Positions 25,341 through 61,641 of a DNA stretch of 64,000 nucleotides are shown one piece after another. The stretch covers positions 148,492,001 to 148,556,000 of the forward strand of contig CM059431.1 in the NCBI GenBank assembly GCA_030390025.1. The letters run 5' to 3'. The position numbers and the translations under genes were made by a program. This DNA comes from Squalus acanthias. Lineage: Eukaryota. The stretch's first letter is position 1, and the number at the start of each line of letters is the position of its first letter. The notes below the pieces were generated by a model, which was given only the letters and a program-made list of their open reading frames with translations, had not been told where the DNA came from and made no database searches.

Positions 25341-25344
25341 TTCG

Positions 25345-30819: not shown

Positions 30820-31000
30820 ATGGATTGGAATCTGAGAACAGTAGATTGGAATGTTACAACAATGGGCAAGAGTTTTTCCTCGGCGTTTGACGTTCTTTAT
30901 GAATATTATGATATGCTATCATTACAAAGTCGGATCCTTTACGCACTTCAGACGATTCAAATCTTTTACTATCCCCTCCTTGCTGTTGTTGGTGTTCCTG
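30820..31000 (+). CDS. GPR139-like: Exon 1 of GPR139/GPR142-like class A GPCR (N-terminus to mid TM1)
   Basis: MDWNLRTVDWNVTTMGKS...IQIFYYPLLAVVGVP G|GTAAGG phase-1 donor; start ATG choice (30820 vs 30862) uncertain. Confidence 0.78.
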
Positions 31001-31104
31001 GTAAGGCTCTCTATATTGCTATTAAGTCTATAAACCTTGTTTAACAGGATCACTGTTCTTATCTTTTACTCTCCCCTCCTTTGCTGCGGTTGTTATTCGG
31101 TAAA

Positions 31105-31212
31105 AAAAGAAGGACTTGCATTTGTATAGGGTCTTTCATGACAACCGTACGTCACAAAGTGCTTTACAGCCAATTAAGTTATTTTTGAAGTCGATTCATT
31201 GTTGTAATGTGG
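31105..31212 (-). mobile_element. Deu-type SINE 3' fragment
   Basis: Matches 32610-32720; flanked by ggtaa on both sides. Confidence 0.7.
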
Positions 31213-31379
31213 GTAAGTCTCTGTAACCAACTATTACCTCTCCAAACCTTTGCCTACTGTATTACCTTTCTCGTAAGTTACTCTCTCATCTTTGCCGCTG
31301 TTGGTATTCCTGTGAAGTCTCTACATTCAGCAATTAGATCTATACACCACGTCTCACTCTTTTGCTGTGTTTGTTATTT

Positions 31380-31860
31380 AAATCTTGGGAACACCAAAGC
31401 CATTGTCTTCAGTCCTCGTTACAAAGTCCATGTTTTAATCTACCAATTCAATCTCCCTCCCTGACCAACGTGTGAGGATGAACCAGACTGTTCGCAAACA
31501 CGGCGTTTTCTTTGACCTTGAGCTGTGTTCCGACCTTGTATCCTCTGATTCCCCAGTCCTGCCTAAAACCATTTCCATAATATCGAACATGTCAGTCTCA
31601 CCTCAGCCCTTCCACTGCATAAACCCCCACCCATGCCTTTTTTTAAACCTGACTGGAATATTCCAATAATCTCCTGGCTTACCTCCATAAACTAGAGTTC
31701 ATCCAAATCTCTGCTGCCCATAACCGAACACGCACCATTTCCTGTTCACACATCAACCCTTTGCTCGCTGACCAACATTTGCTCCCGAGCGGGAAAAGCC
31801 TCGATCTTAATATTCTCATCATTATGATCAAATCCCACCATGACCTCACCCCTACAATTA
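31380..31860 (+). mobile_element. Old L2 LINE fragment
   Basis: LNLGNTKAIVF, TVRKHGVFFD, LEFIQISAA-like decayed L2 motifs, related to 41000-41520. Confidence 0.65.
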
Positions 31861-32034
31861 GCCCCATTCCCAAGTTATTTTCCCATAGTCCTGCAAATTG
31901 TTACCCTTCAAGTATTTATCCAATTCCCCTTTTAAAGTTAATGTCTTCCCTGCTGTGCCTCTCCCAGTCTTTCTGTCTCTATTTTTCTTTCTCTCTGTCT
32001 CTCATTCTCCCTCTTCTCTCTCCCTGTTTCATGC

Positions 32035-32410
32035 TCATAGAATTATAAAATGGTACAGCACAGATTGGGGCCATTCGGCCAATCGTTTCCGTGCCATCTG
32101 TTTGAAAGAGCTGTCTCATTATTCCTACTGTTTACCCAGAGGACTGAAAAAAATTCCTCTTCAACTAATTATCCCATTCCCTTTCGAAGGTTACTATTGA
32201 ATACACTTCCACCACGTTCTCACACAGTGCATTCCAGATCACAGCAACTCACTGCAAAAAGAAAATTCTCCTCATCTCTGCTCTGGGTCTTTTGCCTATT
32301 ATCTTAGATCTGTGACCTCTGGTTAACCACCTTTCTGCCACTGGAAAGAAACTGACAAATGCACACTTTAAAACCCATCAAAGTTTTGAAATCTTTATTA
32401 AATCTTCCTT
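32035..32410 (-). mobile_element. CR1 3' fragment
   Basis: catagaattataaaatggtacagcaca tail; similar to 27855-28200. Confidence 0.7.
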
Positions 32411-32609
32411 TATGAAAAAGGACAGAGATAGACAAGGTGTGAACGCTTTCAACTAGGGAAAGGCCAATTTTATTTAGCTGAAATGTGATTCAGCAAGAGT
32501 GTACTGGAAACAGCTACTTGAAGGTAAATCAGTGTCAGAACAATGGGGGGCATTCAAGGAGGAGATAGTGAGGCTTCAGAGCAAATATGTTCCCAGAAAG
32601 AAAAAAAGG

Positions 32610-33063
32610 AAAGGAAAGACCTGCTTTTATATAGCGCCTTTTACGACCAGTGGACGTCTCAAAGCGCTTTTCAGCCAATGAAGTACTTTTGAAGTGGAGT
32701 CACTGTAGTAATGTGGGAAACACGGCAGCCAATTTGCAAACAGCAAGGTCTCAGAAACAGCAAATGATAATGACCAGAGAATCTGTTTTGTTATGTTGTT
32801 TGAGGGAAACATATTGGCCAGGACACCGGGGATAACTCACCTGCTCTTCTTCGAAATGGTGCCATGGTGTCTTTTACGTCCACCTGAGAGAGCAGACGGG
32901 CCCTCGATTTAACGTCTCATCCGGAAGACGGCACCTCCGACAGTGCAGCACTCCCTCAGCACTGTACTGGAGTGTCAGCATAGCTTATGTGCTCAAGTCC
33001 CTGGAGTGGGACTGAGAACCCACAACCTTTTGACTCAGAGGCGGTTGTGCTGCCAACTGAGCT
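32610..33063 (-). mobile_element. Full-length tRNA-derived Deu-domain SINE (SacSINE1-like), inserted in a plus-strand CR1 fragment (32415-33200)
   Basis: Minus strand: A-box agctcagttgg, B-box-like gggttctcagtcc, core ggaggtgccgtcttccggatgagacgttaaa, tail ggcgctatataaaagcagg shared with the L2 end at 40650. Confidence 0.8.
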
Positions 33064-35554
33064 ACAGCTAACAAAAAGAATGGTACTCAAAAACTGGAGC
33101 CCACTGAATGTCAAGGAGCATACAGGGAAGTATAAGCTAAATAAGAGTAGCTTTTCTCATATACTGAGAGCTCACAACTACAGAAAGCCTATAGGGGTAT
33201 AGAAATTGCAGGGTTTAAATAGGACTACATAGGATTACATAGCATATACGGCACAGAAATAGGCTATTTTACCCAACCAGTCTAGGTCGGCGTTTATGCT
33301 TCTCTCGAGCCTGTTCCCGTCTTTCCTCATCTTATTCTATCAGCATAACACTCTAATCCCTTCTCCCTCATATGCTTATCTAACGGCTCCTTAAATGCAT
33401 CTATGCTATTCGCTTAAACCACTCCCTGTGTTAGCGAGTTCCACATTCTCACCACTCTCTGGGTAAAGAAGTCTATTCTGAATTCCCTATTTGATTTTTT
33501 GGTGACTATTTCATATTGATGACCTCTAGATTGCTCTCCCCCAAAAGTGGAATCACTCTCTCTGTATCTACTCTTTCAAAAGCTTTCATGATTTTAAAGA
33601 GCTCTATCAGTTCACCACTCAGCCTTCACTTTGCAAGAGAAAATAAACCAAGACTCTTCATCCTTTCCTGATAGGTGTTCCCTCGCATTTCTGGTATCTT
33701 CTTTGTAATCTACTCTGCCCCCTCTCCAGTGCCTCTATATCCTGTTTTATAATGTGGCGATCGGAATTGCACACAATTATCCAAGTGTGATCTAACCAAG
33801 TCCACACCAAGGTTCAATACAAGTTTAGCATAACTTCACTACTTTACAATTCTATCTTTCTAGAAATAAACCCTAGTGTTTGGTTTGCTTTTTGTTTGTC
33901 CTTGTTAACCTGTGCCAATAGATTTCAATGATTTGTGTATTTGTTCTCCTAGATCCCTTTATTCCTCTACCCCATTGTTGTTTCTTATTTCCCAAGTAAT
34001 ATGTGACCTCCCTATTCGTCTTACCAAAATGAAACACCTCACCTTTCTTTTTGTTTAATTTCATTTTCTAATTATATGCCCATTCTGCAAGTTTATTAAA
34101 GTCTTCTTGTAATTTGTTGCAGTCCTCCTCAGTATTGGCCATCCTCTCCAATTTGGTGCCGTCCACAAATTTAGAAATTGTGTTTTAGATTACAAAGTCT
34201 AATTCATTAATATAAATTTTGAACAACAGTTGTCCCAGCACTGATCCTTGTCGAACACCACTACCCACCTTCTGCCACTCTGAATAGCTACCCTTTACCC
34301 CTATTCTTCGCTTTCAGTGTTGAAGCCTGGTAGCTATCCATTCTGATGTCATTACTGCATTTGCATTGTCTACTCTCTCTGTTAACTCTTCAATAAATAC
34401 CATTCGTTTGATCAAGCAAGGTTATCCCTTTTGAAATCCATGCTGACTATTCATTCTTATATTTTTCATTTCTAGATGTACTTAAATGTTACCTTTAGCA
34501 GGGATTCCATTATTTTTCCAACCACCGATGTTAATCTGATTGGTCTACAGTTCCCTGGATATGTTATATCTCCCATCTTAGATAAAAGTATTACGTTAGC
34601 ACTCCACTCGTCCTCTGGCCCTACACCATTTTCTAACGAATTGTTAAGTATGTGTAGTAATGCCTCTGCTATCTCTTCCCTAGATTCTCTTAAATACGTG
34701 GATGTAACCGCCCACACCAGGGGTTTTATCCTCTTTGAGTTTGATTAGATTATTTAGTATATCTCTTCATTTTATATTAAATGCAGTGAACTCATTACTA
34801 ATCTCGTCATCCGATTTCATCTCCACCTCTTCTATCTCCCTGGAAAATACTGAAGCAAAGGTATTATTTAATATCTCTGCCTACTCACTTTTGCTGCCTG
34901 TGGTATTATCGTCTCCATCGCTTAGTGGCTCTATTCCCAACACGACCTTCCTTTTTAAATGATATGACTCTGAATTATTTCTACATTTTGTTTTATATTC
35001 CTTGATAATTTAATTTCTTAGTCCCTGTTGCCTTCCTAATTGTTTTTTTGACTCCTCTTCTAATTCCTTCATATTCTCCATTATCACTCTCCCCTGCTGA
35101 CCATGAACTTAATGTATGCCGCTTTCCTAATGCTCATTGTTTCCCTTATGCCTTTTTTCATCCACGGTGTCTCGTTAATGTTTAGCTTGTTCTTGTTTAT
35201 TAGCAGAATATATTTTTCCTGGAATCTGTTGAAGACTGTTTTTATTGTTTCCCATTGCTGTTCTATATCATTGTTTGCCAATGTTGTCCATTTTATTTTC
35301 CTCACTTCTATTCTTAGTCCCTCAAAGTCAGCTGTTCTCCAATCTATTACCCTTGTCTTTGTCATACCTATTTCCTTCTGAATTATTATCTTAAAGCGTG
35401 TTATGTTATGGTCACTATTGCCTCGATGTTCCACTATGTTTTCTTCTCTTATCTGCTCTGATTCATTCCCCATCACTATATCCAATAGTGAATCCCACCT
35501 TGATGGGCTTTTTTCATATTGGGTTAGAAAGGAGAATTGTACACATTATGATAG

Positions 35555-36578
35555 CAAACTACTGCGGATGCTGGAAATCCGAAATAACAACAGAAAACGC
35601 TGGAAAAACTCAGCAGGCCAGACAACATCCGTGGAGAGAGAAAGAGAGTTAACGTTTCCGGTCGAAACCCTTCGTCGGAACTGAAAGAGCAGGAAATAAA
35701 CAGATACAAATGCAAGGGGGATGCTGGGGGGAGGAATAAACGAACAAAAGGGATGGTCTATAGTAAGTAGAGACATTAAGAGATGCTCAAGGCAAGACTA
35801 GATGGTAATGGGACAGGATGAGAAACAAAAGGTTAGGTGTGAAATGCTGGCAGAATCAGAGACAGCGGCCTTGGGGGCGAGAGAGAAAAAAAAAAGGAAA
35901 AAGGCACGGACCAAAAGAGTGGATAAAATGCATACATATGTGGTCGGGGCCGGGGTTATCATCTGAAATTGTTGAAATCGATAATGAGTCTGGATGGCTG
36001 TAAAGTGCTTAAACGAAAGATGAGGTGCTGTTCCTGGAGCTTACGCTGCACTTCTGTGGAACAATGCAAGAGGCTGAGGACGGTGAGGTCTGAGTGAGCG
36101 TGGAGGGGTAAATTAAAATGACATGCGACCGGAAGCTCGGGGTCATCCTTATGGACTGAACGGAGGTGTTCCGCTAAGCGGTCACCCAATCTGCGTTTGG
36201 TCTCCGCAATATAGAGGAGACCACATCGTGAGCAGCGAATACAGTATACTAAATTGCAAGAAGTACAAGTAAATCGCTGTTTCAACTGGAAGGGGTGTTT
36301 GGGGCCCTGGAGAGTGGGAAGGGGGGATGTATAAGGGCAGGGTTAGCATCTCCTGCGCTTGCACGGGAAGGCGCCGGGTGAAGGGGAAGGGGTGCTGGGG
36401 GTGATAGAGGAGTGGACGAGGGTGTCTCGGAGGGAACGGTCCCTACGGAATGCCGAAAGGGGAGGTGAGGGGAAGATACGTTTGGTGGTGGGATCACGTT
36501 GAAGGTGACGGAAATGGCGGAGGATGATCCGTTGAATGTAAAGGCTGGTGGGGTGAAAGGTGAGGACAAGTGGAACTT
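35555..36578 (-). mobile_element. Penelope-like retroelement 3' part with GIY-YIG endonuclease remnant
   Basis: QRFTCTSCNLVYCIRCSRCGLLYIAETKRRLGDRLAEHLRSV..VACHFN; upstream VPLVLTFHP..FRRDRSLRDTLVHS. Confidence 0.92.
35647..35682 (-). ncRNA. Minimal hammerhead ribozyme motif with a core U4C substitution
   Basis: agtt-CCGACGA-AG-GGT(TTCG)ACC-G-GAAA-CGTT-aact; palindromic ACGT helix III. Confidence 0.7.
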
Positions 36579-36989
36579 GTACACTTTGTTGTAGACCCAT
36601 TCTCTTATTCCCTTTACCTGCCTCATTTGTCCAATTAATATCTGGGTATTTGAAATCCCCCATGATTATTTTTCTTTGTTTTTTACTAATTTCCCTAATT
36701 TGTCTTCATATTTCTTCCTCCACCTCTCTTCCAATATTAGGTGGTATCTTGACAACCCCTATTAGTGTGATTGGTCCTTTAAAATATTTAATCTATATCC
36801 ACTTTTTTTATATTTCTGTCTTGCTGCTACCTGCGTCACTTTTATCTAATGCCATTATGTTATCCCTAATAAGTACAGCTACTCCACCTCCCCTTTTTCC
36901 CTCTTTCTATATTTTCTAAATATGTCATAACCAGCAATGTTTCATTCTCAGTCCTTATTTTTCGGTAGCCATGTCTCAGTGAAATCAAA

Positions 36990-39325
36990 GAGAGGGGATG
37001 AAAAAAATATTAACCAATTACATCAAGAAAAAAACAAATATATTTCAGAAACAGATAAAGAGCAAGAGGATAACTAAGGAAAGAGTAAGGCCTATTAGAA
37101 ACCAAAAATAAACCTGTGTTGAAGAGAAATACATGGGTATGGCTGTTAAGGAATGCTTTGCATCTCTCATCACAGAAAACAGGAATAATGCAGACTTTGT
37201 AGTTAAAGAGGAAGTGCGTGAACTATTACATGAGCTTAGCATAGAGAAAGAGGAAGTATTAAGAGGTTTTGCATATTTGAAAGCAGATAAATTGCCAGGC
37301 CCGGATGAAATGTATCCGAGGCTGTTAAGAGAGGCAAGAGAATGTTGTTTCTGAGAGACTAGATTGCATTTTTTGAGGAGCTAACGAGGAGGGTCGATGA
37401 GGGTAGTGTATTTGATGTAGTCCACATAGATATTAGCTAGGCGTTTGACAAGGTTTCAAATGACAGGTTGGTCAAAAAAGTAAAAGCCCATGAGATCCAA
37501 GGGACAGTGGCAAGTTGGATCCAAAATTGGCTCAGTGGCAGGAAGCAAAGAGTAATGATCGATGGGTGTTTTTGTGACTGGAAGGCTGTTTCCAGTGGGA
37601 TTCTGCAGGTCTTAGTACCAGGTGCCTTGCTTTTTGTGGTATGCATCAATGATTTAGATCTCAATATAGGGGGCATGATTAAAAAGCTTGCAGTTGCTAC
37701 AAAAATTGGTCATGTGTTTGGCAGTGAGGAAGAAAGCTGTAGACTGCAGGAAGATATCAATGGACTGGTCAGTTGGGGAGAAAAGTTGCATAAGGAATTC
37801 AATCCGAGGAAATGGGGAGCTCTAACAAAGCAAGGGAATACACAACAAATGGTAGGATACTGAGAATTGTAGAGGAACAGAGGGACACTGAAGTGCATGT
37901 CCAAAGAAGGTAGCAGGACAGGAAAATAAGTGGGTAAGAAGGTATACTGGATAATCTCTTTTATTAGCCGAGGCATACAGTGTAACAGCATAGAGGTAAT
38001 GCCAGAACTGTAAAAAAACACCAGTTAGGCCACAGCTAGAATATTGCGTACATTTCTGGTTACTTTAAAGGAAGATGTGATTGCACAAGAGAGGGCACAG
38101 AAGAGATTTACGAGGATGTTGCCAGGAATGGATAATTTTAGCTATGTGGAAATATTGCACAGGCTGGGGCTGCTTTCTTTGGAGCAGAGGAGGCTGAGGG
38201 AAGATTTAATTAAAGTGCATAAAATTATGGCCCAGAAATTGATCTCGCTCTGTTCCCGCGGGGGTAAGGCTTCCACGCGATCTCTCACTCCACTTGTGCT
38301 TTTTCAGATCCAGCTCGCACGAACTTGATGTTCCAGACATCAGCTGGGCAATGCTTGCGTATCCCACCGGCGTAGTGAATTCGTGCGAGCTGTGGGATCA
38401 CGTGACTCAGTTAGAGCCAATGGCAGCACACCATCTTCCATTCATAAGTTTCACATACTTGCTGTGAAATCTATGAATCTTACACCCCCCCAAAATAACA
38501 GCTAAACCTCAATTAAATTTAAAAAAAAACCATCACATTAATAAAATAAGTATAGTTAAATAAATTAACCATTTTAAATAAAAAATTAAATTTTTGAAAA
38601 AATTTAAAATCTTTTAAAAAGTTATAAAAATAAACTTACCTGTCTTTAAAGTCTCTAAAAAAGATATACCTGTTAAAAAAAATTCAAAAACATACTTAAT
38701 TCACTACTTACCTTGTTAAAAGTGGGTCTTACTCCTCCTTTTTCCATTTCTAAAATCTTCCGTACTTACCTGCGCGTCCAAAGCATGAAGTGCACAGCGT
38801 GCGCGCAGCCTGTAGCACGCACGCGATGCACCGAGGAACCGCCCCCTTTTCAAAAGACCAAGTGCCGGTTTTCAGCGCATGCGCAGGGCATGCAGAAAAC
38901 CGGCAATTGGAGAAAGAATACGCGAGAGTACGCAGTGCGTACTCTCGCGTCGCGGGATGAATTTTTGGCCCATAGAGGCTTGGATGGAGTTGATGGGAAG
39001 CACCTATTTCCATCAGCAGAGAGGTCAATAACGAGGGGCACAGATGTAACGTTATTGGTAGAAGGATTCGATGGGAGTTGTGAATTCCTGTTACGAAGTG
39101 GGTGGTGGGAGTCTGGAACTCACTGCCTGAAAGGGTGGTAGAGGCAGAAACGCTCAGCACATTAAAAGGTACTGGGATGTGCATTTGAATTGCCACAACT
39201 TGCAAGGTTACAGACCAAGAGCTGGAGAGTGGGGTCAGTCTGGATAGCTCTTTTGCGACAGGGACAGACACGATGGGCCGAATGGCCTCCTTCTGTGCCG
39301 TACATTACTATGATTCTATAATTCT
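36990..39325 (+). mobile_element. CR1 fragment with internal deletions, split by a TIR element
   Basis: DKLPGPDEMYPRLLRE, WIQNWLSGRKQRV, EQRRLREDLIKVHKI, resumes at 38975, tail tatgattctat. Confidence 0.85.
38228..38972. mobile_element. Non-autonomous TIR DNA transposon (MITE-like), 745 bp, TA target duplication
   Basis: TA|tggcccagaaatt ... aatttttggccca|TA (11/13 inverted match); host CR1 rejoins across it. Confidence 0.75.
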
Positions 39326-39329
39326 ATGT

Positions 39330-40090
39330 TGCTTAACCTTCGCTGCTGTAAAAAGAACAATCCCAGCTTCTCCAGTCTATCCACGTAACTGATGTCCCAG
39401 ATCCCTGGTACCATTCTGGTAAATCCCTACACTTCTCTAATCCTTGACATGCTTTACAAAGTGTGGTGCCCAGAATTGGACACAATTCTCCAGCTGGGGC
39501 CAAACCAGTGATTTAGAAAAGGTTAGCATTTCTTCCTGGATTGTGTTACTTTGTATCTCTGTTTGTAAAGCCAAGGACTCAGTATGTTTTACTCGCAGCT
39601 GTCGCACCTTCAGCAATTTGCACAATACTCCCGAGGTCTGTCTGATCGTGCACCCACTTTAAAATTGTACCTTTTAGTTTATATTGCCTCTGCTCATACT
39701 TCCTACCAAAATGTATCACTTCACACTTCTCTGTATTAAATTGTTTCTGCCATGTAACTGCCCAATTCACCAATCTATCTATGTGCTCCTCAAGTCTGTT
39801 ACTACCTTCACACTGTTAATTAACATTTCCTTGTTTTCTATCATCTGCAAGCATTAAAATTACGTGCTGTATACCCAAGTCCATGGTATTGATAGACATG
39901 AAAAGAGGAATGGTCCCAATACAGAAACCTGGGGAACGCCAATTTATATTTCCCACCAGTCTGAAAAACAATCGTTTACCACTACTTTCTGTCTCTTAGA
40001 CAATTTCCGAGCCATGTTGCCACTGCCCGTTTAATCCAATGGGATTCAATTTTGATATTATGTGGTAATTTATCAAACACTTTTTGAAAA
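39330..40090 (-). mobile_element. CR1 RT/C-terminal fragment
   Basis: WQKQFNTEKCEVIHFGRK; PQLENCVQFWAPHF. Confidence 0.8.
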
Positions 40091-40269
40091 GATAGGGGAA
40101 TTTGGAAAGTGTGAGTAGTATCAATCATAAAATCATAGAATTGGTGAGCCAAGTTGCTTTGACAATTTGTTTAGCGAAGCATGACGTCCGCATGGATCAT
40201 ATGTCACGCCTGGTTTCAATTAATTAATTACAAAATAATTGACATTATTCCCATTTTATTATTCACATT

Positions 40270-40450
40270 TAGATATATAGGTGGCGCTGTCAAGGCCGGT
40301 ATTATTTGCCCTCCCTCGTTACCAATGATAAAATGGTGGGCCTTCATCTTGAGCCGCTGCAGTCCGTGAGGTGGAGGTGCTCCCACAGTACAATTACGGA
40401 AGGAATTTCAGACTTTTGACCAAGTGACGATGAAGGAACGGCGATAAATT
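40270..40450 (-). mobile_element. CR1-clade family B 3' end
   Basis: gccgctgcagtccgtg..tcccacag..gatgaaggaacggcgata as in 5980-6075. Confidence 0.7.
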
Positions 40451-40456
40451 TGAAGG

Positions 40457-40640: not shown

Positions 40641-40644
40641 TTCT

Positions 40645-43790: not shown

Positions 43791-43794
43791 CCAG

Positions 43795-44412
43795 TTAAAG
43801 ACACAGCAGTCACACAGGCTTCTTTATCAGACAGGACCAGTCACACAGGCTTTTTAAACAGATAGAACCAGTCACAATGTTTATTAAAGAGACAGGATCA
43901 GTAACACAGAATTCTTTAAGAGACAGGACAAAACACATTCGTTTTTAAAGAGACAGGACCAGTCGCAGAGCCTTTATAACGAAGCAGGAACAGTCACATA
44001 GGCTATTTAAAGAGACTGAACGAGTCACTCAAGCTTTTTAAGGTTACAGGACCATTCACTTAGGATTTTAACGAGACAGGACTATTCACTCAGGAATTGT
44101 ATAGATACAGGACTGGTCACAAAGGCTTTATAAAGAGACAAGTCCAGTCACACAGGTTTTACAAAGAGATAGTACCTGTCATACAGATATTTTAAAGAGA
44201 CAGGACCAGTCACAAAGGCTTTTTAAAGAGCCAGCACCAGACAAGGAGGCATTTTTAAAGAGACAGGACCAGTCATACAGGCTTTTTAAAGAGACAGGAC
44301 TAGTCACACAGCCTTTTTAATGAATCAGAAACACTGAGAAAAACTTTATCAAGAAAAAGGACCAGACACATAGATTTTTTTAAGAGACAAACCCAGTCAC
44401 ACAGGCGTTTTA
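43795..44412. repeat. 30-31 bp degenerate minisatellite, ~20 copies
   Basis: taaagagacaggaccagtcacacaggcttt consensus. Confidence 0.85.
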
Positions 44413-45510: not shown

Positions 45511-46320
45511 AACCCGGGAGAGTTCAAAAGCAGCAGGAGCAGAGCGACAGCGATAAAACCCGGTAGAGTTCAAAAGCAGCGGGGGCAGAGCCAGAGCGCC
45601 AAAACACGGGAGAGTTGAAGACAGCGGGAGCAGAGCGAGAGGGCCAAAACCCGGGAGTTTTCAAAAGCAGCGGGAGCAGAGCCAGAGCGCCAAATCCCAG
45701 GAGAGTTCAAAAGCAGCGGGAGCAGAGCGAAATCGCCAAAACCCGGGAGAGTTCAAAAGCAGCGGGAGCAGAGCGAGAGCGCAAAAACCCGAGAGAGATC
45801 AAAAGCAGCGGGTGCAGAGCGAGAGTACCAAAACACGAGAGAGTTCAAAAGCAGCGGGTGCGGAGCTAGAGCGCCAGAACCCGAGAGAGTTCAAAAGCAG
45901 CGGGAGCAGTGCGAGAGCGCCAAAATTCGGGAGAGCTCAAAAGCAGCGGGAGCAGAGCGAGAGCGCCAGAACCCGAGAGAGTTCAAAAGCAGCGGGAGCA
46001 GTGCGAGAGCGCCAGAACCCGAGAGAGTTCAAAAGCAGCGGGAGCAGAGCGAGAGCGCCAGAACCCGAGAGAGTTCAAAAGCAGCGGGAGCAGTGCGAGA
46101 GCGCCAAAACCCGGGAGAGTTCAAAAGCAGCGGGAGCAGTGCGAGAGCGCCAAAACCCGGGAGAGTTCAAAAGCAGCGGGAGCAGTGCGAGAGCGCCAAA
46201 ACCCGGGAGAGTTCAAGAGCAGCGCGAGCACTGCGAGAGCGCCAAAACCCGGGAGAGTTCAAAAGCAGCGGGAGCAGTGCGAGAGCGCCAAAACCCGGGA
46301 GAGTTCAAGAGCAGCGGGAG
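45511..46320 (+). repeat. 46-bp CpG-rich tandem monomer array (~17 copies) at the CR1 5' end
   Basis: aaaacccgggagagttcaaaagcagcgggagcagtgcgagagcgcc. Confidence 0.93.
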
Positions 46321-50536: not shown

Positions 50537-50661
50537 ATGGAGTAAGTAAGGGGGAATTTTTCCACTGGCTGACATGTTATTGCCAAATGGCCAAACATTG
50601 ATCACGCAGTGAGGTGATCTGGAATGGAATCTCTGAAAGGCTGGTGGAAGCAGATTCAATC

Positions 50662-52323
50662 GGCTCAGTTGACAGCAAACTCGCCTCTGAGTCAGAAGGT
50701 TGTGTGTTCAATTCCAACTCCAGCGACGTGATTACAAAAATCTAGGATGACACTCCAGTGCAGTACTTAGGGAGCGCTGCACTGTCGGAGGGGCAGTACT
50801 GAGCTATCGCTGCACTGTCGGAGGGGCAGTGCTGAGGGAGCGCGTCACTGTCGGAGGGGCAGTTTTGAGGGAGCGCTGCACTGTCGGAGGGTCTGTACTG
50901 AGGTAACACTGCACTGATGGAGGGACAGTACTGAGGGAGCGCTGCACTGTTTGTGGGTCAGTACTGAAGGTGAGCTTCACTGTCGGAGGATCAGTACACA
51001 GGGATCACTTCACTGTCTGAGCGGCAGTACTGAGGGATCGCTGCACTGTCGGAGGGTCAGTACTGAAGGAGCGCTGCTGTGTAGGAGGGGCAGTACCGTG
51101 GGATCATTGCACTGTCGTAGGGTCAGTCCTGAGGGAACGCTGCACTGTCTGAGGGGCTGTACTGAGGAAGAGCTGCACTGTCAAATGGGCAGTACCGTAG
51201 GAGCGTTTTATTGTTGAAGGGTTAGTACTGAGGGAGCGCTGCACTGTCGGAAGAGCAGTACTGAACGAGTGCTGCACTGTTGGAAGTTCAGGGAGCACTG
51301 TCTTTTCGAGGGACAGTATTGATGGAGTGTTGCACTGTCAGAGTGAAAGTACTGAGGGAGAGCTCTACTGTTGCAGAGGCATTATTGAAGGAGCGCTGCA
51401 CTGTCAGAGGGGCAGTTCTGAGGGGGCGATGCACTGTCGGAGGGGCAGTACTGAGGGAGAGCTGCACAGTCGCAGTACTGTACTGAGGGACCGATGCACT
51501 GCCGGAGTGGCAGTGATGAGGGAGCCCTGCACTGTCGGATGGTCATTACTGAGGGAGCTCTGTATTCGCGGAGGGGCAATACTGAGGGAGCGCTGCACTG
51601 TCTGAGCGGCAGTACTGAGGGATCGCTGCACTGTCGGTTGGTCAGTACTGAAGGAGCGCTGCACTGCCGTAGGTATAGTACCGAGGGATCACTGCACTGT
51701 CGGAGGGTCACTACTGAGGGAGCGCTGCATTGTCTGAGGGGCTGTACTGAGGAAGCGCTACACTGTCAAATGGGCAATACTGAGGGAGCGCTGCACTGTC
51801 GGAGGGGCAGTACTGCGGCAGCGCTGCACTGTCGGAGCGGCAGTACTGCAGCAGCGTTGCACTGTCGGAGGGGCAGTACTGAGGGATAGCTGCACTGTCG
51901 GAGGGGCAGTACTGAGGCAGCGCTGCACTGTCGGAGGGGCAATACTGAAGTGGCGCTGCACTGTTGAAGGGTCAGTACGGAGGGAGCGCTGCACTGTTGA
52001 AGGGTTAGTACTGAGGGAGCGCTGCACTGTTGTAGGGTCAGTACTGAGGGAGCGCTGCACTGTCGGAGAGGCAGTACTGAGGGAGCGCTGCACTGTCGGA
52101 AGGGCAGTACTGAGCGAGTGCTGCACTGTTCGACCTGCAGGGAGCACTGTATTGTCGAGGGACAGTAATGGCGGAGTGTTGCACTGTCAGAGTGAAAGTA
52201 CTGAGGGAGTGCTCGACTGTTGTAGAGGCAGTACTGAGGGAGTACTGTCCTGTCGGAGGGGCCGTCTTTAGGATGCTCTCTTTGGTCGTTAAAGGTGCTC
52301 TATAAATGCAAGTCTTTCTTTCT
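50662..52323 (+). mobile_element. Deu-type SINE with internal 33-bp minisatellite expansion
   Basis: Head ggctcagttg..gttcaattcc (50662-50713), array, then gccgtctttaggatg and tail ctataaatgcaagtctttcttt. Confidence 0.85.
50760..52262. repeat. 33-bp minisatellite, ~45 copies
   Basis: cagtactgagggagcgctgcactgtcggagggg. Confidence 0.95.
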
Positions 52324-52639
52324 TAATAGAAATATTCAAAAGGTAATTCGATATATACTTGAAACGGAGACATTTTCAGGACTATGGGGAAACAACTTAA
52401 TTGTTCATGACCATTCACGAAAGGAAATAACAGCTTTGAAATAATCTGATATGATGGTTGTGGGATCGCTTGAATCTGTCTAATTTCTTCCCACTGAGCA
52501 CGATGGTAGTGGCAAATAATACGATGGATGGTGTCCTCTGTGTGAAGGCCAGACTTATTCTAAACAAATATTGTGCAGTAGTCAGTCCTACTAATATTGT
52601 CATGAACAGATGTATATGCGATATCTAGATTGGTGATGA

Positions 52640-53110
52640 CGACGTCATGCAGGATATTTTCCCGTGTTGGTTCTCCCATCACCTGCCACAATCCCATACT
52701 GGCAGCTCTGTTCTTCAGGGCTTGGTTAATGATGATGCTTCCGAGTCACTCTTGGTGATGGACATTGAAGTCTCCCACTCCCCACCAAGAGCGTTATATG
52801 TTGTGCCCTTTCTGCTCTCGGTGCTCCCATCAACTGGTGTTCAGCATGAATATGTGATGATTCATCAGCAGAATGATGGCGGTAGGCGGTAATCATCAAG
52901 AAGTGACATTGCTCATATCTGACTGGAAGCCATGAGAATTCATTATATCCTTAGGCAATGTTGAGGACTCGCAGGATCTCTCCCAGCCGACTGCATATCC
53001 CTGTGCCACCGCCTCTGGTGAGTCTATCCTGCCGGTGGAACAGGATATACACTCGAATGGCGATGGAGGACTCGAGAATGTTGATTGATAGTATTGGTTC
53101 TGTGACTATG
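52640..53110 (-). mobile_element. LINE endonuclease-region fragment (probably CR1 family B)
   Basis: Minus strand VGDFNVHHQE*LG at ~52740-52778. Confidence 0.6.
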
Positions 53111-53742
53111 ATTGTCCGAGAATTCAATGTTTCCGGAGCTTTTCATTGAGTATTGAGACTTTAATAGGGTATTTATTTATTGATTAATATTTTAAGCGTT
53201 TTCCTTTGATTCCTTTGTGTCAAACCTTTGCTGGCTTTATTATTTTCTCCCGCTCGGTAAATCACCATTACAAGATTGGCAGGTTGATCTCAATCATTAG
53301 AAACACCTTGTTTTTCTTATCCGCGATTCAGGAAAATATGAATGCCCTGGGAACAACTTGCTGGACTAAGGCAGGAACATGTAACCTTGGCAGCCGTGGG
53401 AATGAAATTCCTAAACTAAGGCGGGAGCAGTGTAATCTCGGCTACCCTGGGAATTAAATTCCTGGACTGAGGGAGGGTGAAATGTCGTGCAGACGCTCCA
53501 TTTTAATTTAAAGCTGTGTACAATAATGTGAGCTAGATTGTGTTGCAGTGAAGTGTTGGGATGATAATGGCTCAATGATTCTGTTTGTTCAGTGACTGTA
53601 ATTAATGCCAGTTGCAGTGAGGCCTAATGATGTCACTCGGGGATTTCCCTCTGCTCTAAATTATGAGCTCCCTTCACTGTGTGACCTCACACAATCAGCG
53701 CGTTCCCTCCAGCACAAAGACCACCAGCCTGTCACAGAAGAG

Positions 53743-54594
53743 ATGTCATGGGTTCGAGGAGCTCCATGGAAAGTATTCTTGAACAGTGTCAGTTAACTAC
53801 AGTACTTTGGAATAACAACAGAACATGTGAAAAACACTCAGTAGGTCAGGCAGCATCCGTAGAGAGAGAAAGAGTTAACGTTTCAGGTCTGTGACCCTTC
53901 AGGAAAAGCGGGTAGGAGAGGAAAGAACAAAAGGGATTGACTGTGATAGGGTGGAAGGCAGCAGTGGTTAAATGTTTCAAATGGGGATGGGAGAATCGTC
54001 AACAGCTGCCGTCTGAAAAAAAGGGGTCGAGGTTATGGTCTGTAATTGCAGTACTCACTGCTGCGTCCAGTAGGCTGTAATGTGCCTAACAGAAAGATGA
54101 AGTGCTGTTCCTCGAGCTTAAGTTGAGCTTCATTGGTACAGTATAAGAAGCAGAGGCCGGTGATGTCAGAATGGGAGGGGAATAGAGAATTAAAGTGACA
54201 GGAAACCTGAAGCTCAGCGATACAGTTACGGAATGAACGGAAGTGTTCCGCATACCGATCACCCAATCTGCATTTGGTCTCCCAAATGTAGAGGAGACCG
54301 CATCGTCAGCAGCGAATACAGTATACTAAATTGCAAGAAGTACAAGTAAATCGCTGTTTCACCTGGAAGGAGTGTTTGGGGCCCTGGACAGTGGGAAGGG
54401 AGAAGGTAAAAAGGCCGGTGTTGCATCTCCTGCGCTTGCACGGGGAGGTTCCGTGGGGATGGGTGCGGCTGTTGGTGGTGATTAAGGAGTGAACCAGAAT
54501 ATTGTGGAGGGAGCGGTTCCTTCGGAATACTGAAAGTGAAGGAGAGGATTACCAAATATTTACTATCCCCTTCTCGCTACTGTTAATGTTCATA
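53743..54594 (+). pseudogene. Disrupted paralogous GPCR exon 1
   Basis: Promoter block at 53581; MSWVRGAPWKVFLNSVS*LQYFG [Penelope insert] LPNIYYPLLATVNVH A|GTAAGT, homologous to FYYPLLAVVGVP G|GTAAG. Confidence 0.65.
53812..54545 (-). mobile_element. Penelope-like element 3' part (GIY-YIG remnant, truncated hammerhead at 53873-53903)
   Basis: GDRYAEHFRS..VSCHFNS..KLEEQHFIF; colinear with 35580-36470. Confidence 0.88.
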
Positions 54595-54631
54595 GTAAGT
54601 ATTTATTAACAATTATTAATTCTATAAACCA

Positions 54632-55282
54632 CAGTCTCCAGAGCTGTAGTGATACCCGCCCTCCTGCATTCTTCAGAGAAGTGGACGATGTACAGCAGGC
54701 ACCTCAAAGCACTGGAGAGCAACGACCAACGCTGATTCCGCAAGATCCTGCTAATCCATTGGCAGCATAGGCGCACCAAATCAGTGTTCTCGCTCAGGCC
54801 AACATCCCCAGCATCGAAGCTTGGAGCTTGCTCGATCAGCTCCGATGGAAGGGTCACATCGCCCTCATGCCCGATACGAGACTCCCAAAGCAACGCTCTA
54901 CTCGGAGCTCCGACACGGCAGTATAGCCCCAGGTGGGCAGAGGATATGCTTCAAGGGTAACCTCAAAGCCTCCTTGAAAATGAGCAACATCCTCACCGAC
55001 ATCTGGGAATGCCTGACCCAAGATCGCAGAAAGTGCAGAAGAAGCATCTGGGAAGGCGCCGAACACCTCGACTCTCTTCGCTGGGAGCAAGCGGAAGCCA
55101 AGCGCAAGCAGCGCAAGGACCGCTCGTCAACCCAAGCACCCCAACCACCCGCCCCGTCAACCATCGTCTGCCCTACTTGTGACAGAGACTGTAGGTCCGC
55201 ATTGGACTCATCAGTCACCTGTGAACTCATTTTTAGTGTGGAAGCAAGTCATCCTCGGTTCCGAGGGATTGCCTAAGTAGAG
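54632..55282 (+). mobile_element. RTE-clade LINE 3' fragment with AAACCA target-site duplication
   Basis: RAVVIPALL..SEKWTMYSRHLKALE, LYSELRHG..GGQR..LKASLK, CPTCDRDC; aaacca at 54626-54631 and 55283-55288. Confidence 0.85.
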
Positions 55283-55794
55283 AAACCATGTTACAATCTA
55301 ATATTATTCTTGCAATTTACCGTGAAATACTCTGTTATTAATGATATTCTGTGTTTCAAGTTGTTGCATCTTCGTTAATGCAAGATTTGTTTAAAAAGAC
55401 TGACACATCCTCACTGCTGTTGGTGTTCCTGGTAAGTATATGCATCCAGCTGTTAATTCTATAAATCATGTCTAACTGTATTACGGTTCTTGTCATTTAC
55501 TGCCCCACACACCCTCGCTAATGGTGGTGTTCCTGGTAAATCTCTGGATCCAGCTATTAATTCTACAAATCATGTTTAACTGTATTTCTCTTCATGCCAT
55601 TCCTCATCCCATCGGCACTGCTGTCGGCTATTGATTCTGAAGGTGATACAGCGCTAATAAGATTCAATTGTTCTATATTCAACTTAAGAAAATATATCGG
55701 ACGAGACTCTTTGCTCAACGAATTCCGTTCTGCTGTCTGCACTGAACATTTGTAACAGATCAGAAGTATATTGTCTTGTTTGAGGAGATTTTCA

Positions 55795-55930
55795 ACTAAC
55801 GACGAAAGATCATCGACTTGAAACTAACTCTCTCTCTGCACAGATTTTGCCTGACCTGCTGAGTACTGAAAACATTTTCTGTTCTTATTTCAGATTTCCA
55901 GCATCCGCAGTAATTTGGTTTTGTTTTCAC
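55795..55930 (+). mobile_element. Solo Penelope terminal fragment with degenerate hammerhead
   Basis: gacgaaagatcatcgacttgaaactaactc..ctgacctgctgagta..tttccagcatccgcagta. Confidence 0.7.
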
Positions 55931-56984
55931 CGAATGCTCGGTATGGTTACTGACACAGAGTCACAGGAACAAATCCTGGCAGATCACACTCACATCTTTA
56001 AATGTCTGAAATATCCGCGAATCATTCAGTTCCAGTCACTGGCTCTTTTCCCACCATCTCCAGCTCTGCATTAGTGGCACTGCTTCTGAAGGATAGAAAA
56101 GGATTAGTAGGATAATTTACATTCTCAAAAAACGTTCACTCAGAAATATTTCAATGAGTTTAATTCCAATCTTTGTTTTCAATTTACAATTGGATCCCAT
56201 GCCGGCCTGTCACAGTTCAGTCGATCTCTCAGTGAACCCAGAGTGATTCTCTATTGCCTCCTGCTGTACTGCAGAATAAACAATCCCAGCTGATTGTAAC
56301 TGATTTACTGAGGATAAGAAAATCCTTTCATATTTTCTCGACTAATATTCTCTGCACAAGTTGGAAAGCAACAGGCGAAAAAGTGCAAGGATAAATCTCT
56401 TCCATTTGAGTTCAGATACTTTACAAAATCGTTCGACGGCTCGTTGCCTGTTGAATAAGTCGCGTGATTATGATGCTAATAAATGCATTTAGTGGGTTAT
56501 TACCTGGTCAATTTTAACTATTTATTTTAATTCAGAGTCCATTCTTTGCAATGTTATTTGGAAAATCTTCCTTTCAATGAGCCACAATTTGAGTATTTCA
56601 ACATAACTGTAGAAAGCTCAATCTTCAAATCACTTCTTACATCCCAGTTATCTTTATAACTGCAGGGCACTTGCCTTTATTTTCTCAGTATTTTCATAAT
56701 ACAGCCGTACATTTTAAATAAAGTTGGCTGTAATTAATGCACGCCAAGTTTACAGTTTCTGTAATTTGCCGTTGCATTCATTTTCAGTCCTAAATCTAAT
56801 GGATATCTAACCAGGAGCAGGAGTCCAAGCGGTATTTCCCCCTTTCTAACATAAAGGGCATTGAAGGAAATTGCTCCGGTCCAAATGCTGACTGATCCCG
56901 GGACACGAAGGCTTCCTGAGAGCTTCTGGTCCTGTGTGTCCCTGGTACCTCGTCGGTGCTTTTGTCTGCTGGGCTAAAGGTAGA

Positions 56985-59900
56985 TCATAGAATTATAGAA
57001 TCATAGAAGATAGGAGCAGGAGTAGGCCATTCGGCCCCTTCAAGCCTGCTCCGCCATTCAATGCGATCATGGCTGATCATCCAAATTCAGTACCCTGTCC
57101 CTGCTTTCTCCCCATATCCCTTGATCCCTTTAGCCTTAAAAATATATCCAACTCCTTCTTGAATCTATTTAATGAATAACAGTTTCACCACTCTCTGGGT
57201 GAAGAAATTCCTCCTCATTTCTGTCCTTAATGGCTTAACCCTTATCCTTTGGCTGTGACCCCTGATTCTGGACTCCTCGACCATCGGGAACATCCTTCCT
57301 GCATCTACTTTGTCCTGTCCTGTCAGAATTTTATAAGTTTCAAGGAGATCCCCTCTCATCTTCTAAACTCCAGCGAGTATAAGGCCAATCCACCCAATCT
57401 CTCTTCAACGTCATTCCTGCCATCCCAGGTATCAGCCTTGTGAATCTTCGCTGAATTCCTTCCATGGCAAGAACATCCTTCCTCAGATAAGGCGACCAAA
57501 ACTGCGCACACTACTCAAGGTGTGGTCTCACCAAGGCCCTGTACAAATGCAGCAAGACATCCTTGTTCCTGTACTCAAACCCTCTCGCTATGAAGGCCAA
57601 CCTACCATTTGCCTTCCTAACCGCCTGCTGCACCTGCATGTTTACCTTCAGCGACTGGTGCAGAAGGACACCCAGGTCTCGTTGCACTTTCCCTTCTCCC
57701 AATCTATTGCCATTCAGATAATAATCTGCCTTTCTGTTTTTGACACCAAAGTGGATAACCTCGCATTTATCCACGTTACATTGCATCTGCCACGCTTCTG
57801 CCCAATCACCCAACCTGTCCAAATCATCCTGTAGTTTATCGGCATCCTCCTCGCAGCACCCATGCCCACCCAGTTTTGTGTCGTCTGCAAACTTGGAGAT
57901 ATTGCATCTAGTTCCCTTGTCTAGATCATTAATATATATTGTGAATAGCTGTGGTCCAAGGACCGATCCCTACTGTACCCCACTAGTCACTGCCTGCCTC
58001 TCGTAAAAATACCCTTTTATTCCAACTCTTTGCTTTCTGTCTGACAACCAGTTCTCTATCCAAGTCAATACCTTGCCCCCAATCCCATGTGCCTTAACTT
58101 TACACGCTAATCTCTTATGCGGGACCTTATCAAATGCCTTTTGGAAGTCCAAATACACCAGATCCACTGGTTTTCCCTTATCTATTTTACCAGTTACATC
58201 CTCAAAAAATTCCAGTTGATTTGTCAAGCATTATTTACCTTTTGTAAATCCAAGTTGATGTTGTCCGTTCCTGTCATTCTTTTCCAAGTGCTCAGCTATT
58301 ACATCTTTTAAAATGAACACTAGAATTTTCCCCACTACCGGTGTCAGGCTTACCGGTCTGTAATTCCCCGTTTTCTCTCTACCACCCTTTTTGAATAGTG
58401 GGGTAACATTAGCTACCCTCCAATCCAAGGGAACTGTTCCCGATTCCATCGAATGTTGGATAATGATCAGCAATGCATCTACTATTTCGAGGGCCACTTC
58501 CTTATATACCCTAGGATCTAGATTATCAAGCCCTGGGGATTTATCGGCCTTCAATCCCTTCAATTTCCCTTGCATAATTTCCCTACAAATACTGATTTCT
58601 TTCAGTCCCTCCCTTTCATCAGACCCTATGTTCCTCAACATTTCTGGGAGGTTATTTGTGTCCTCCTTTGTGAAGACAGAACCAAAATATGTATTTAATT
58701 AGGCTGATATTTCTTTGTTCCCCATTATAATTTCCCCTGATTCTGACTGCAAGGGACCTATGCTTGATTTCACTAATGTTTTTCTCTTCACATATCAATA
58801 AAAGCTTTTAATGTCAGTTTTTATGTTCCCTTCAAGCTTACTCTCATAATCTATTTTCCCCTTCTTAATTAATCCCTTAGTCCTCCTTTGTTTAGTCTTA
58901 AACTGCTCCCAATCCTCAGGGTTACTGCTTTTTCTGGCCATTTTATATGCCCTCTCCTTGGATCTTATGCTATCCCTAATTTCCCTTGTTAGCGACCGTT
59001 GAGTCACCCTTTTTGTATTATTCATATGCCAAACTGGGATGAAAACATTCTGTAGTTCGTCCATGCGGTCTTTCAATGTTTGCCATTGCCTATCCACGGT
59101 CAACCCTTTGAGTGAATTTACCCAATCAATCCTACCCAACTCGCTCCTCATCCCATCGTAGTTTCCTTTAGTTAATTTTAGGAGCCTAGTCTCTGAGGCA
59201 ACTACTTCACTCTCCATCTTAATGAAGAATTCTATCATATTATGATCGGTCCGACCCAATGGGCCTCGCAGAACAACATTGCTAATTAATCCTTTCTCAT
59301 TGCATATTAGCCAGTGTAAGATAGCCTGTTCTCTGGTTGGTTCCTCTACATATTGATCCAGGAAACCATCCCGTAAACACTCCAGGAATTCCTCCTCCAT
59401 AGTATTCTTACTAATTTGGTTAGCCTACTCTATATGTATATTAAATTCACCCATGATGACTGCTGTGCCCTTATTGCACGCTTCTCTTATTTCCCTTTTA
59501 ATGCCATCCCCAACCTCCGCATTACTGTTTTGAGGTCTATATATCACGCCCACTAACGTTTTCTGCCCCTTGTTATTTATCAGTTCAACTCATACAGATT
59601 CCAAATCATCGGAGCTAATATCCTTTCATTCAATTGTGTTAATCCCCTCTTTAACCAGCAATGCTACCCCACCTCCCTTTCGTTTTTGCCTATCTTTCCT
59701 GAATATTGAGTACCCATGGATGTTGAGTTCCCAGCCTTGGCCACCCTGGAGCCATGTTTCGGTAATCCCAATCAAATCATATTCGTTTACCTCTATTTGC
59801 GCAGCTAATTCATCCACCTTGTTCCGAATGCTCCTTGCATTAAGACACAAAGCCTACAGGCTTGTTCTTTTTTAGGCTCTTAGACCTATTAGAATTAGTA

Positions 59901-60455
59901 TTTACTGTGGCCATGTTTGATTTAAACCGTTGTTTTCTCTGACTGCCACTTTTGTTTTTCACCTTCCTATGTTTTGCTGTTATCCTTGATTCCCTTCCCT
60001 CTGTCTCCCTGCTCAGGTTCCCAACCCCCTGCTATTTTAGTTTAAACCCTCGCCAGAGCACTAGAAAACACTCCCCCGAGGACATCGGTCCCGGCCCTAC
60101 CCAGATGTAGGCCGTCCGGTTTGTACTGGTCCCACCTTCCCCAGAACCGTTTCCAATGCCCCAGGAATTTGAATCCCTCCCACTTGTACCATTCCTCTAG
60201 CCACGTATTCATTTGAAATATCCTTCTATTTCTACTCTGACTAACACGTGGCACTGGTAGCAATCCTGAGATTACTACCTTTGAGGACCTATTTATTAAT
60301 TTACCTCCTAACTCCCTATGTTCTGCTTTTAGGACCTAATCCTGTTTTTTACCTATATCGTTGGTACCTATATGCACCACGACAACTGGATGTTCATCCA
60401 CCCCTTCCAAAATTCTCTGTAGCCACTCTGAGACATCCTTGAACCTTGCACCATT
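56985..60455 (-). mobile_element. Long CR1 LINE (ORF1 esterase part, ORF2 APE+RT, 3' tail), inactive
   Basis: YKPDGLHLG (ORF1); CLNARSIRNK..ITETWL; NYRPVSLT; YLDFQKAFDK; (atagaatc)n tail. Confidence 0.93.
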
Positions 60456-60739
60456 TAATCTCTCATTGATCAAATATCTGTTACTTTCCTGTTGTATTTA
60501 GCCCCGTTTCATTGATTGATTCTTCACTGTATTCCCGATCATTCTTACAATAAACCCTGTATTTAGCTCCACGGGTAATCGAATGAGATTATATCATTGA
60601 ATGTCGCTAATGAGTTGCTGATTTCTCCCCGAATTCCTCCAAACTTCTGCTCTTGCTCCCAGCCTGATGTATAATTTCCCTGTTTATTTCCCGTCCCAGC
60701 CTGATGTATAATTTCACTGTTTATTTCCCTTGCTCACAG

Positions 60740-61641
60740 TGAACTTAGTGACGATTCTGATCCTGTCTCGGGGAAAGTGCGGTCTCTCCAAATGTGTCAC
60801 TCGCTACCTGCTGGCCATGGCAGCAGCGGATCTACTGGTCGTTTTCCTCGACCTGATACTGAGGCACATTCCGATTGTTTTTTTGGAACATTTTTATTTC
60901 GTGCGGTCCATTCCCGTGTGTAATATCCACGCCGTCCTGCTTTATGCAGCCACAGACTGTTCTGTCTGGTTCACCGTCAGTTTCACCTTCGATCGATTTG
61001 TGGCCATTTGTCGCCAGAAGCTGAAAACGAAGTATTGCACCGAGAAAACGGCGTCTGTGATTCTGGGAACAGTGACTGTGCTGAGCGGCTCAAAGAACAT
61101 TTCCTGGTATTTTATGTTCACAGCTTGGTATGGGCTTTGGAACATTCCCTGGTTTTGTGAAGTAACAATCGATGTTATGAAATCACGTGCCTGGGCAGCA
61201 ATTGAGCTCCTTCATTATAGTCTCACCCCGGCGGTCCCATTTGTTCTGATTCTGCTGTTCAATGTTCTCACCGTCAAACACATTTTAGTGGCCAGCAAAG
61301 CCCGCAGGAGATTCCTGGGTCCCAGCAGTGGTGAGATTCAGAGAGACCCAGAGATGGAGAGCCGCAGGAAATCCATCATTTTACTGCTTGTTATCTCGGG
61401 CAATTTCATCCTGTTATGGGCAGTGTTTATGGTGATTTACATATGGAGCCGGATAGGGTCTATCAGTCCTGTGTCTGTAAATGCTCCTCTTTATTTACTG
61501 GAATTGGGATTGATGCTGCAGATGCTGAGTTGCTGCACAAACACAGGGATTTATGCCGTGACCCAGACTAAGTTCAGAGAGCAGTTGAAGAATATGGGGA
61601 AATATCCCTTTACTCTGATTGTAAAATTCATTAAAGGATAA
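60740..61641 (+). CDS. GPR139-like: Exon 2 of GPR139/GPR142-like class A GPCR (TM1 end to C-terminus)
   Basis: Acceptor ttccct tgctcacag|TG; VNLVTILILSRGKCGLSKC..LAMAAADL (TM2), FTFDRFVAIC (TM3), TM5-TM7, CCTNTGIY, helix 8 KFREQL; no stops. Confidence 0.92.

Follow-up and report, generated by a model that had tools for sequence, protein, structure and literature searches.

The stretch of DNA analysed here, referred to as the window, comprises 64,000 nucleotides of the genome of Squalus acanthias (assembly GCA_030390025.1, contig CM059431.1, positions 148,492,001 to 148,556,000 of the forward strand). It carries two exons, beginning at 30820 and 60740, which form an intact, in-frame and probably functional gene encoding a receptor of the G-protein-coupled type (GPCR). 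The initial annotation had joined these exons through positions 31000 and 60740, and the join holds. Exon 1 ends in CTG followed by the donor GTAAGG, exon 2 is preceded by a pyrimidine tract and CAG, both sites are in phase 1, and joining the exons by script gives a frame of 1083 nucleotides (nt) and 360 amino acids (aa) with a single terminal stop and the motifs DRF and NTGIY. Read through unspliced, exon 1 meets a stop 14 codons inside the intron. It encodes a single 14-aa repeat, in which N11 forms an N-glycosylation sequon, then an N-terminal helix that is predicted, and the opening portion of transmembrane helix 1 (TM1), the helix boundaries being taken from the homologue P0004. About 45 codons are open above position 30820 but contain no ATG, and an in-frame start further upstream was rejected.

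Exon 2, used as a query, retrieved 2368 protein clusters out of 3443 candidates, and in 85 of the best 120 of these clusters the helix end YYP..L stands right before the position at which exon 2 begins. Over 60 aa the exon 1 peptide shares 65% of its residues with the shark homologue P0058, and this match together with the shared helix end places the pairing of the exons beyond chance. Profiles built from 86 exon 1 and 119 exon 2 homologue regions were run on all six frames of the window. The exon 2 profile has a sole match at 60742-61635 (E 6e-164, the next being E 0.25), and the exon 1 profile detects one intact exon 1 (E 2.5e-29). Neither a second exon 2 nor a remnant of one between the exons was found by the exon 2 profile in the six frames of the 64-kb window; weak profile matches at 62451-62561 (E 0.25) and 38615-38830 (E 0.57) were treated as noise. 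Splicing from 31000 to 60740 is a prediction, and a likely one. When four runs were compared with 60300-61700, nearly all contigs proved to be relatives, most of them less than 95% alike, none of the loose ends listed fell at 60740, and no read or contig crossing the junction was seen; this comparison has no bearing on splicing. Calling the receptor hidden was an overstatement, since RefSeq already models many shark paralogues with the same exon 1 end.

Exon 2 matches the Pfam family 7tm_1 with 68.5 bits (cut-off 30.5; E 8.4e-19). Its AlphaFold model has a mean predicted local distance difference test score (pLDDT) of 85 and a predicted template modelling score (pTM) of 0.84, and Foldseek aligns this model to class A GPCR structures with a TM-score of about 0.7. 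In the fold of the full-length homologue P0004, TM1 is one unbroken helix (35-70) that runs through the point at which the exons meet. Hydropathy of the joined 360-aa protein gives only four peaks above 1.5, and the assignment of seven helices, with helix 8, rests on the folds of exon 2 and of P0004. The class A core motifs are present as D2.50, the pair C121/C200 (C3.25 and the cysteine of extracellular loop 2, ECL2), DRF, W287 (6.48) and N328-x-x-x-Y332; Pro6.50 and Pro7.50 are missing here, likewise in most of the subfamily. The joined product is a predicted class A (rhodopsin-like) GPCR.

The best 120 clusters all bear the name 'probable G-protein coupled receptor 139', and four sharks account for every one of them (52 from Heterodontus, 42 from Heptranchias, 25 from Pristiophorus and 1 from Scyliorhinus). 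Most are 68-75% identical over exon 2, and none of the matches listed exceeds 75%. When the 50% representatives were searched exhaustively, 563 matched, 116 of them at E <=1e-30; among the 20 representatives looked up, 11 are from sharks or rays, three are from coelacanth, salamander and pejerrey, and six are without a useful name. The top clusters of the ESM Atlas bear the same automatic GPR139 name. Of those among the best 120 that do not have the YYP..L helix end, many have unrelated N-termini, some of which match fragments of long interspersed nuclear elements (LINEs) in this window; the LINE-matching N-termini of P0009, P0029, P0038, P0041, P0066, P0072 and P0099 are probable false first exons. 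Such models suggest that gene finders often miss exon 1 of shark family members.

A quick maximum-likelihood tree of 59 rows was built from the window protein, 17 of the 120 top matches, 24 of 150 representatives, four chondrichthyan sequences and six of 20 amphibian ones, together with sturgeon, coelacanth, pejerrey and four unnamed outgroups. The window protein falls within a shark-type clade of 20 rows with a Shimodaira-Hasegawa-like approximate likelihood ratio (SH-aLRT) support of 100, and the wider shark and ray set joins a clade of amphibians and sturgeon at 94; coelacanth and pejerrey fall outside this grouping. The protein is placed with the shark paralogues in a row set that does not include true GPR139 and GPR142. 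Exon 2 scores 38 bits against human GPR139, 100 against the salamander protein and 102 against the coelacanth protein. In a structural alignment the identity to human GPR139 is 22-24%, whereas human and zebrafish GPR139 are 70% identical and the receptor is described as highly conserved across vertebrates (PMC7318219). Given this remote score and low identity, the protein is a GPR139-related receptor and not the orthologue, which bears out the earlier view of a lineage-expanded orphan family; nor is it likely to be GPR142. Its sequence places it in a family of sharks and rays that is very large and is related to, and distinct from, GPR139. This copy is an ordinary member, and the label 'GPR139' misleads. 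The family is already catalogued in RefSeq under its automatic name, with this copy not among the listed proteins. The nearest bony-vertebrate relatives of the protein are members of an amphibian and sturgeon receptor.

Positions in the binding pocket were mapped through alignment to GPR139 (PDB 7vug and 9m42, chain number minus 212), with the ligand contacts of GPR139 drawn from two sources, Zhou et al. (PMC8807744) and Nohr et al. (PMC5430874). Tyr129 (3x33; Phe in GPR139), His219 (5x43) and Trp287 (6x48) preserve the deep part of the pocket. The polar site of GPR139, which has been modelled to bind the amino-acid backbone, is lost: Arg6x51 is replaced by Phe290, Asn7x38 by Leu318 and Glu3x32 by Leu128. 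In GPR139 the substitution N271A strongly reduces the potency of tryptophan (Trp) and phenylalanine (Phe) (PMC5430874). Within the subfamily, Asn7x38 occurs in 0 of 119 rows and Arg or Lys at 6x51 in 0 of the 118 rows listed; Lys6x51 and Asn7x38 are kept in all 20 of 20 amphibian relatives, and Arg6x51 in coelacanth and pejerrey. Four acidic sites recur in the subfamily (n = 119), namely Asp2x57 (118), Asp3x37 (118), Glu5x40 (108) and Glu7x35 (106), and 3x37 is Asp or Glu in 37 of 42 rows of the wider family. From these replacements we infer that the pocket may have switched towards a cationic ligand, either an amine or a basic peptide.

Among shark paralogues the outer loops are the more variable ones. 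When 40 of the 119 shark paralogues were sampled and compared with 20 amphibian relatives, the mean pairwise difference in ECL1, ECL2 and ECL3 was 0.38, 0.54 and 0.57 in sharks versus 0.17, 0.21 and 0.10 in amphibians; in intracellular loops 2 and 3 (ICL2, ICL3) and the C-terminal tail it was 0.21, 0.24 and 0.30 versus 0.30, 0.37 and 0.48. Variable outer and constrained inner loops form the pattern to be expected where one signalling output serves many ligands. Like the vertebrate chemoreceptor repertoires of the OR, TAAR and V1R type, the family is large (one species contributes 52 clusters to the best 120), is diversified on its ligand side and shows gene decay (a relic exon in the window). 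It is likely to sense many different chemicals.

The region preceding exon 1 contains a TATA-like element at 30682-30690. A 42-nt repeat at 30778-30865 (Tandem Repeats Finder, TRF: period 42, 1.9 copies, 30785-30865) encodes the 14-aa N-glycosylated unit of the N-terminus, and its upstream copy, without ATG, lies in the predicted 5' untranslated region (UTR). No array of 26-nt units precedes this promoter-like region or its copy in the intron. The translated 5' UTR resembles the N-terminus of model P0045, and the 14-aa NxT repeat motif occurs 0-5 times per homologue (n = 86), with up to five coding copies. Beyond exon 1, the intron is 29,739 nt long, and at least 16,027 of its bases either recur elsewhere in the window or are part of three tandem arrays (units of 31, 46 and 33 nt). 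LINE endonuclease or reverse-transcriptase families are matched by 5 of the 66 intron open reading frames (ORFs) scanned, one of them below the curated cut-off; the 66 were drawn from 80 listed, and the 14 left out lie mostly in tandem arrays. The earlier description of the intron as filled with transposable elements is a fair one.

While the earlier account was right that no other exon 2 is present, it overlooked a decayed second exon 1 in the intron (53.6-55.6 kb). This relic has no open frame from an ATG, and the exon 1 profile matches it with E 0.012 at 54558-54590. Its promoter-like block is 72-73% identical to the DNA above the intact exon 1. The relic is interrupted by an insertion of about 716 nt, which over 523 nt shows 78% identity with its sibling copy at 35946-36468, and because the two are only this similar the relic was probably broken long ago. 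The translations of the element copies at 35946-36705 (minus strand) and 53830-54545 resemble what we take to be a Penelope-type GIY-YIG endonuclease; Pfam gave no match for this element at E 0.001. Alternative first exons with donors at 54595, 55432 and 55536 were rejected as coding, each having an in-frame stop and no ATG. The donor-like site at 55432 is nearer to the usual donor consensus than is the donor of the intact exon 1. A unit of about 100 nt, consisting of the 3' end of exon 1, the donor and the first intron bases, occurs twice at the intact exon (30966-31380) and three times at the relic (54543-55637), with 67-77% identity between repeats, and may be a family trait.

Table 1. Positions of the receptor gene and of repeated or decayed features in the window.
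Feature	Position	Strand	Details
Promoter-like region and predicted 5' UTR	30530-30819	+	Putative promoter; paralogous copy at 53553-53696, 72-73% identical
Exon 1	30820-31000	+	181 nt; 60 codons + 1 nt; profile E 2.5e-29
Intron	31001-60739	+	29,739 nt; phase 1; GT-AG; at least 54% repeats; splicing predicted
Exon 2	60740-61641	+	902 nt; 299 codons + stop; remainder of TM1, the helices up to TM7, and helix 8
Degenerate second copy of exon-1-end/donor unit	31212-31380	+	Just inside the intron; 67% identical to 30966-31098
Decayed second exon 1	53553-54630	+	Block 53553-53696; insertion 53830-54545; 3' end of the exon 54543-54594; GTAAGT donor from 54595
Two further exon-1-end/donor-like units	55399-55637	+	Donors 55432 and 55536; in-frame stop in each, without upstream ATG
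Minisatellite arrays	22817-24416, 25344-27415, 43807-44412, 45511-46320, 50760-52262		Units of 22, 67/134, 31, 46 and 33 nt

Our preferred reading, to which we assign a probability of about 0.5, is that this two-exon gene is spliced over 29.7 kb and forms one unit of a ligand-diversified repertoire for a cationic ligand, not for Trp or Phe. Transcription would start from the TATA-like promoter near 30690, and 31000 would be spliced to 60740 with the dead exon 1 copy skipped. Exon 1 would give the N-terminal repeat, which would be glycosylated, along with the beginning of TM1. Ligand specificity would be set by the varied ECL1-3 and the tops of TM6 and TM7 on a conserved core made up of the Cys3.25-ECL2 pair, DRF, His5x43, Trp6x48 and the conserved ICL3, with Asp98, Asp133, Glu216 and Glu315 replacing the basic anchor at 6x51. 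Signalling through Gq/11 is borrowed from GPR139 by analogy and may apply here. Tandem duplication and decay would have turned the family over, leaving the relic exon in the intron. The initial annotation had mentioned a chemosensory or a nutrient-sensing role; the diversified ligand-side loops agree in part with a role of chemosensory type, and the replacement of Arg6x51 and Asn7x38 speaks against sensing of Trp or Phe by the mechanism of GPR139 and GPR142.

The decayed exon 1 in the intron raises the question of which exon 1 is the true partner of exon 2. Exon 2 could have lost its own exon 1, now the relic at 53.6-54.6 kb, so that the gene is a silent or young pseudogene, the exon at 30820 an orphan of a neighbouring copy and the splice never made. 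The relic with its own promoter-like block does sit 6.1 kb before exon 2, the strong donor-like sites at 55432 and 54595 are nearer to the acceptor, and 11 conserved sites in the protein deviate from the consensus. Set against this, frame, length and splice sites are kept in both exons despite the heavy decay of the relic. In simulations limited to substitutions, with indels left out, a frame of 1083 nt stayed free of stops in 47%, 15% and 3% of 2000 runs at 2%, 5% and 10% random substitution, and this low survival, taken with the age of the relic, indicates that exon 2 has probably been under selection since the relic died. That the relic was broken anciently while exon 2 is intact favours the exon at 30820, which is the only intact exon 1 partner in the window. 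The same two exons could also be a functional chimera, arising from two tandem paralogues of which one lost exon 2 and the next lost exon 1, the survivors being spliced together (exon shuffling by deletion in an array). A collapsed tandem pair would show this order, with a decayed exon 1 between exon 1 and exon 2, and promoter blocks only about 73% alike point to old paralogues. The rare residues of the two exons, however, are common to the same set of homologues (86 non-independent rows, Spearman 0.35; in exon 2 the two best exon 1 partners stand at ranks 6 and 4 of 86), which argues against both a pseudogene and a chimera, as does the lack of any exon 2 remnant between the exons. When homologues are ranked by exon 2, the best exon 1 partner falls within the top 21%, versus a median of 63% for RefSeq models, a further point against a chimera. 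One exon 1 motif and one exon 2 motif co-occur in the same 3 of 120 homologues, all of them horn shark, which speaks against a pseudogene. Several results nevertheless weigh against the preferred reading. The test of co-occurring motifs was a post hoc choice and its three homologues are near-copies from one species, and the concordance of the exons in whole identity is flat (rho -0.07; in a second test 0.04 versus a homologue median of 0.08), as a chimera would have it. The 11 departures, among 158 conserved sites, include Cys152Arg and Leu178Ser; the median of 119 homologues is 5, and only 7 of them have as many or more. In the single catshark row there are 13, so that a species effect could account for the number here. 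The two insertion copies may belong to different subfamilies, in which case the age of the relic is overstated. Neither AATAAA nor ATTAAA, the canonical polyadenylation signals, occurs in the last 2.3 kb between the stop codon and the window end, which also suits a pseudogene. In the pocket, 2x57 is Asp in 8 and Glu in 8 of 42 wider-family rows, so that Asp2x57 is not general, and of the four acidic sites only 2x57 is a listed GPR139 ligand contact. Taken together, we consider a pseudogene unlikely and a chimera decidedly improbable.

Granted splicing as predicted, the receptor might serve an internal signalling or defence role, such as sensing of neuropeptides, gonadal peptides or immune peptides, and not the sensing of outside chemicals. 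Among solved structures, the family profile ranks peptide receptors next after GPR139 (those for neurotensin, prolactin-releasing peptide, cholecystokinin (CCK) and ghrelin), GPR139 itself responds to melanocortin peptides (PMC7318219), an expansion of FMRFamide-receptor-like genes in snails has been tied to reproduction (PMC11589774), and the acidic pocket suits basic peptides equally well. Many paralogues with hypervariable outer loops would, by our reasoning, be hard to pair with few endogenous hormones, an immune role still being compatible, and the internal role seems to us possible with the odds against it. A sensor of aromatic amino acids as nutrients, of the GPR139 or GPR142 type, would agree with GPR139 as the best solved relative and with the kept Tyr/Phe3x33, His5x43 and Trp6x48 of the deep pocket. 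An identity of 22-24%, set beside the 70% between human and zebrafish GPR139, and the presence of Phe at 6x51 and Leu at 7x38, where loss of the asparagine in GPR139 (N271A) cuts Trp and Phe potency so strongly, make such a sensor very improbable. Going beyond the preferred reading of a ligand-diversified repertoire, we put forward only tentatively, and with more doubt than belief, that sharks and rays possess an unrecognised chemoreceptor repertoire derived from a GPR139-related ancestor, with an acidic pocket for amines or basic peptides in place of the basic, carboxylate-binding residue at 6x51, and with this gene as a working member. In amphibians this ancestor would have stayed conserved, apparently as a single gene.

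Elsewhere in the window, a C2H2 zinc-finger exon with TGERP linkers lies on the forward strand at 6496-7110, with three Pfam zf-H2C2_2 stretches (E 8e-23) and an acceptor-like site near 6495; because its frame shifts near 6950, it looks like part of a decaying zinc-finger gene. Long CT-rich tracts fill much of 11000-22800 and give rise to long low-complexity ORFs.

Literature searches, with most subscription journals outside their coverage, found no paper on the shark 'GPR139' family. In the accessible main texts, the word 'GPR1' does not occur in the catshark genome paper (PMC11979771), nor 'GPR139' in the whale shark paper (PMC8455134), nor 'shark' in a 2025 review of GPR139 (PMC12208981) or in Rinne et al. 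2019 (PMC6504862), and a term search of the accessible text of PMC12287315 did not find pocket data. In the catshark, 8 olfactory receptor (OR), 5 trace amine-associated receptor (TAAR), 6 vomeronasal type 1 receptor (V1R) and 35 type 2 receptor (V2R) genes have been counted (PMC6368271), and a relative paucity of GPCRs has been described for cartilaginous fishes (PMC8455134). Snails offer a parallel in the expansion of FMRFamide-receptor-like genes (PMC11589774). A single gene is one more copy and carries little weight; the interest lies in the family, where these small published chemoreceptor counts stand against 2368 related clusters, the best 120 of them all from four sharks. If these receptors are indeed sensory, a major part is missing from the picture of shark chemosensation. 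The analysis adds points that can be tested, namely the conserved amphibian and sturgeon relative as an ancestral reference, the predicted switch in pocket charge and the misleading 'GPR139' label.

Among known systems, the shark and ray RefSeq and UniRef models named 'probable GPR139' (among them P0004, P0058 and P0094) are closest, being alike in exon 1 end, N-terminal repeat, length of about 360 aa and clade. Unlike the shark and ray models listed, the window gene has a decayed exon 1 inside its intron. Some shark and ray relatives are automatically named 'vasopressin V2 receptor-like' or 'neuropeptides capa receptor-like', with no function attached. The amphibian and sturgeon clade (P0249 and P0278-P0297), a conserved receptor of frogs, salamanders, a caecilian and sturgeon mislabelled 'probable GPR139', is 29% identical and shares the DPEM..RR.SI.LL signature of ICL3 and TM6 and the pair of Cys3.25 and ECL2. 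It differs in having one cluster per species, conserved outer loops and retained Lys6x51, Pro6x50 and Asn7x38; no amniote or teleost members occurred among 25 matches.

The GPR139-related receptors of coelacanth and teleost (P0247 and P0262) are 29-32% identical, are sister to the shark and amphibian group and, unlike the shark subfamily, keep Arg6x51. They may correspond to GPR210A and GPR210B, which Rinne et al. 2019 (PMC6504862) name as additional subtypes present in coelacanth and fishes. Human GPR139 (7vug, 9m42) is the best solved match by sequence, with 38 bits for the single sequence and 97 bits for the profile. It has in common with the shark protein the two-exon gene, His5x43, Trp6x48, an aromatic residue at 3x33 and the lack of Pro at 7x50, but its Arg6x51, Asn7x38, Glu3x32 and Pro6x50 are all replaced in the shark protein, which, unlike GPR139 as aligned, carries a Cys at 3.25. 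GPR139 is not a large family, unlike the shark expansion to which this gene belongs.

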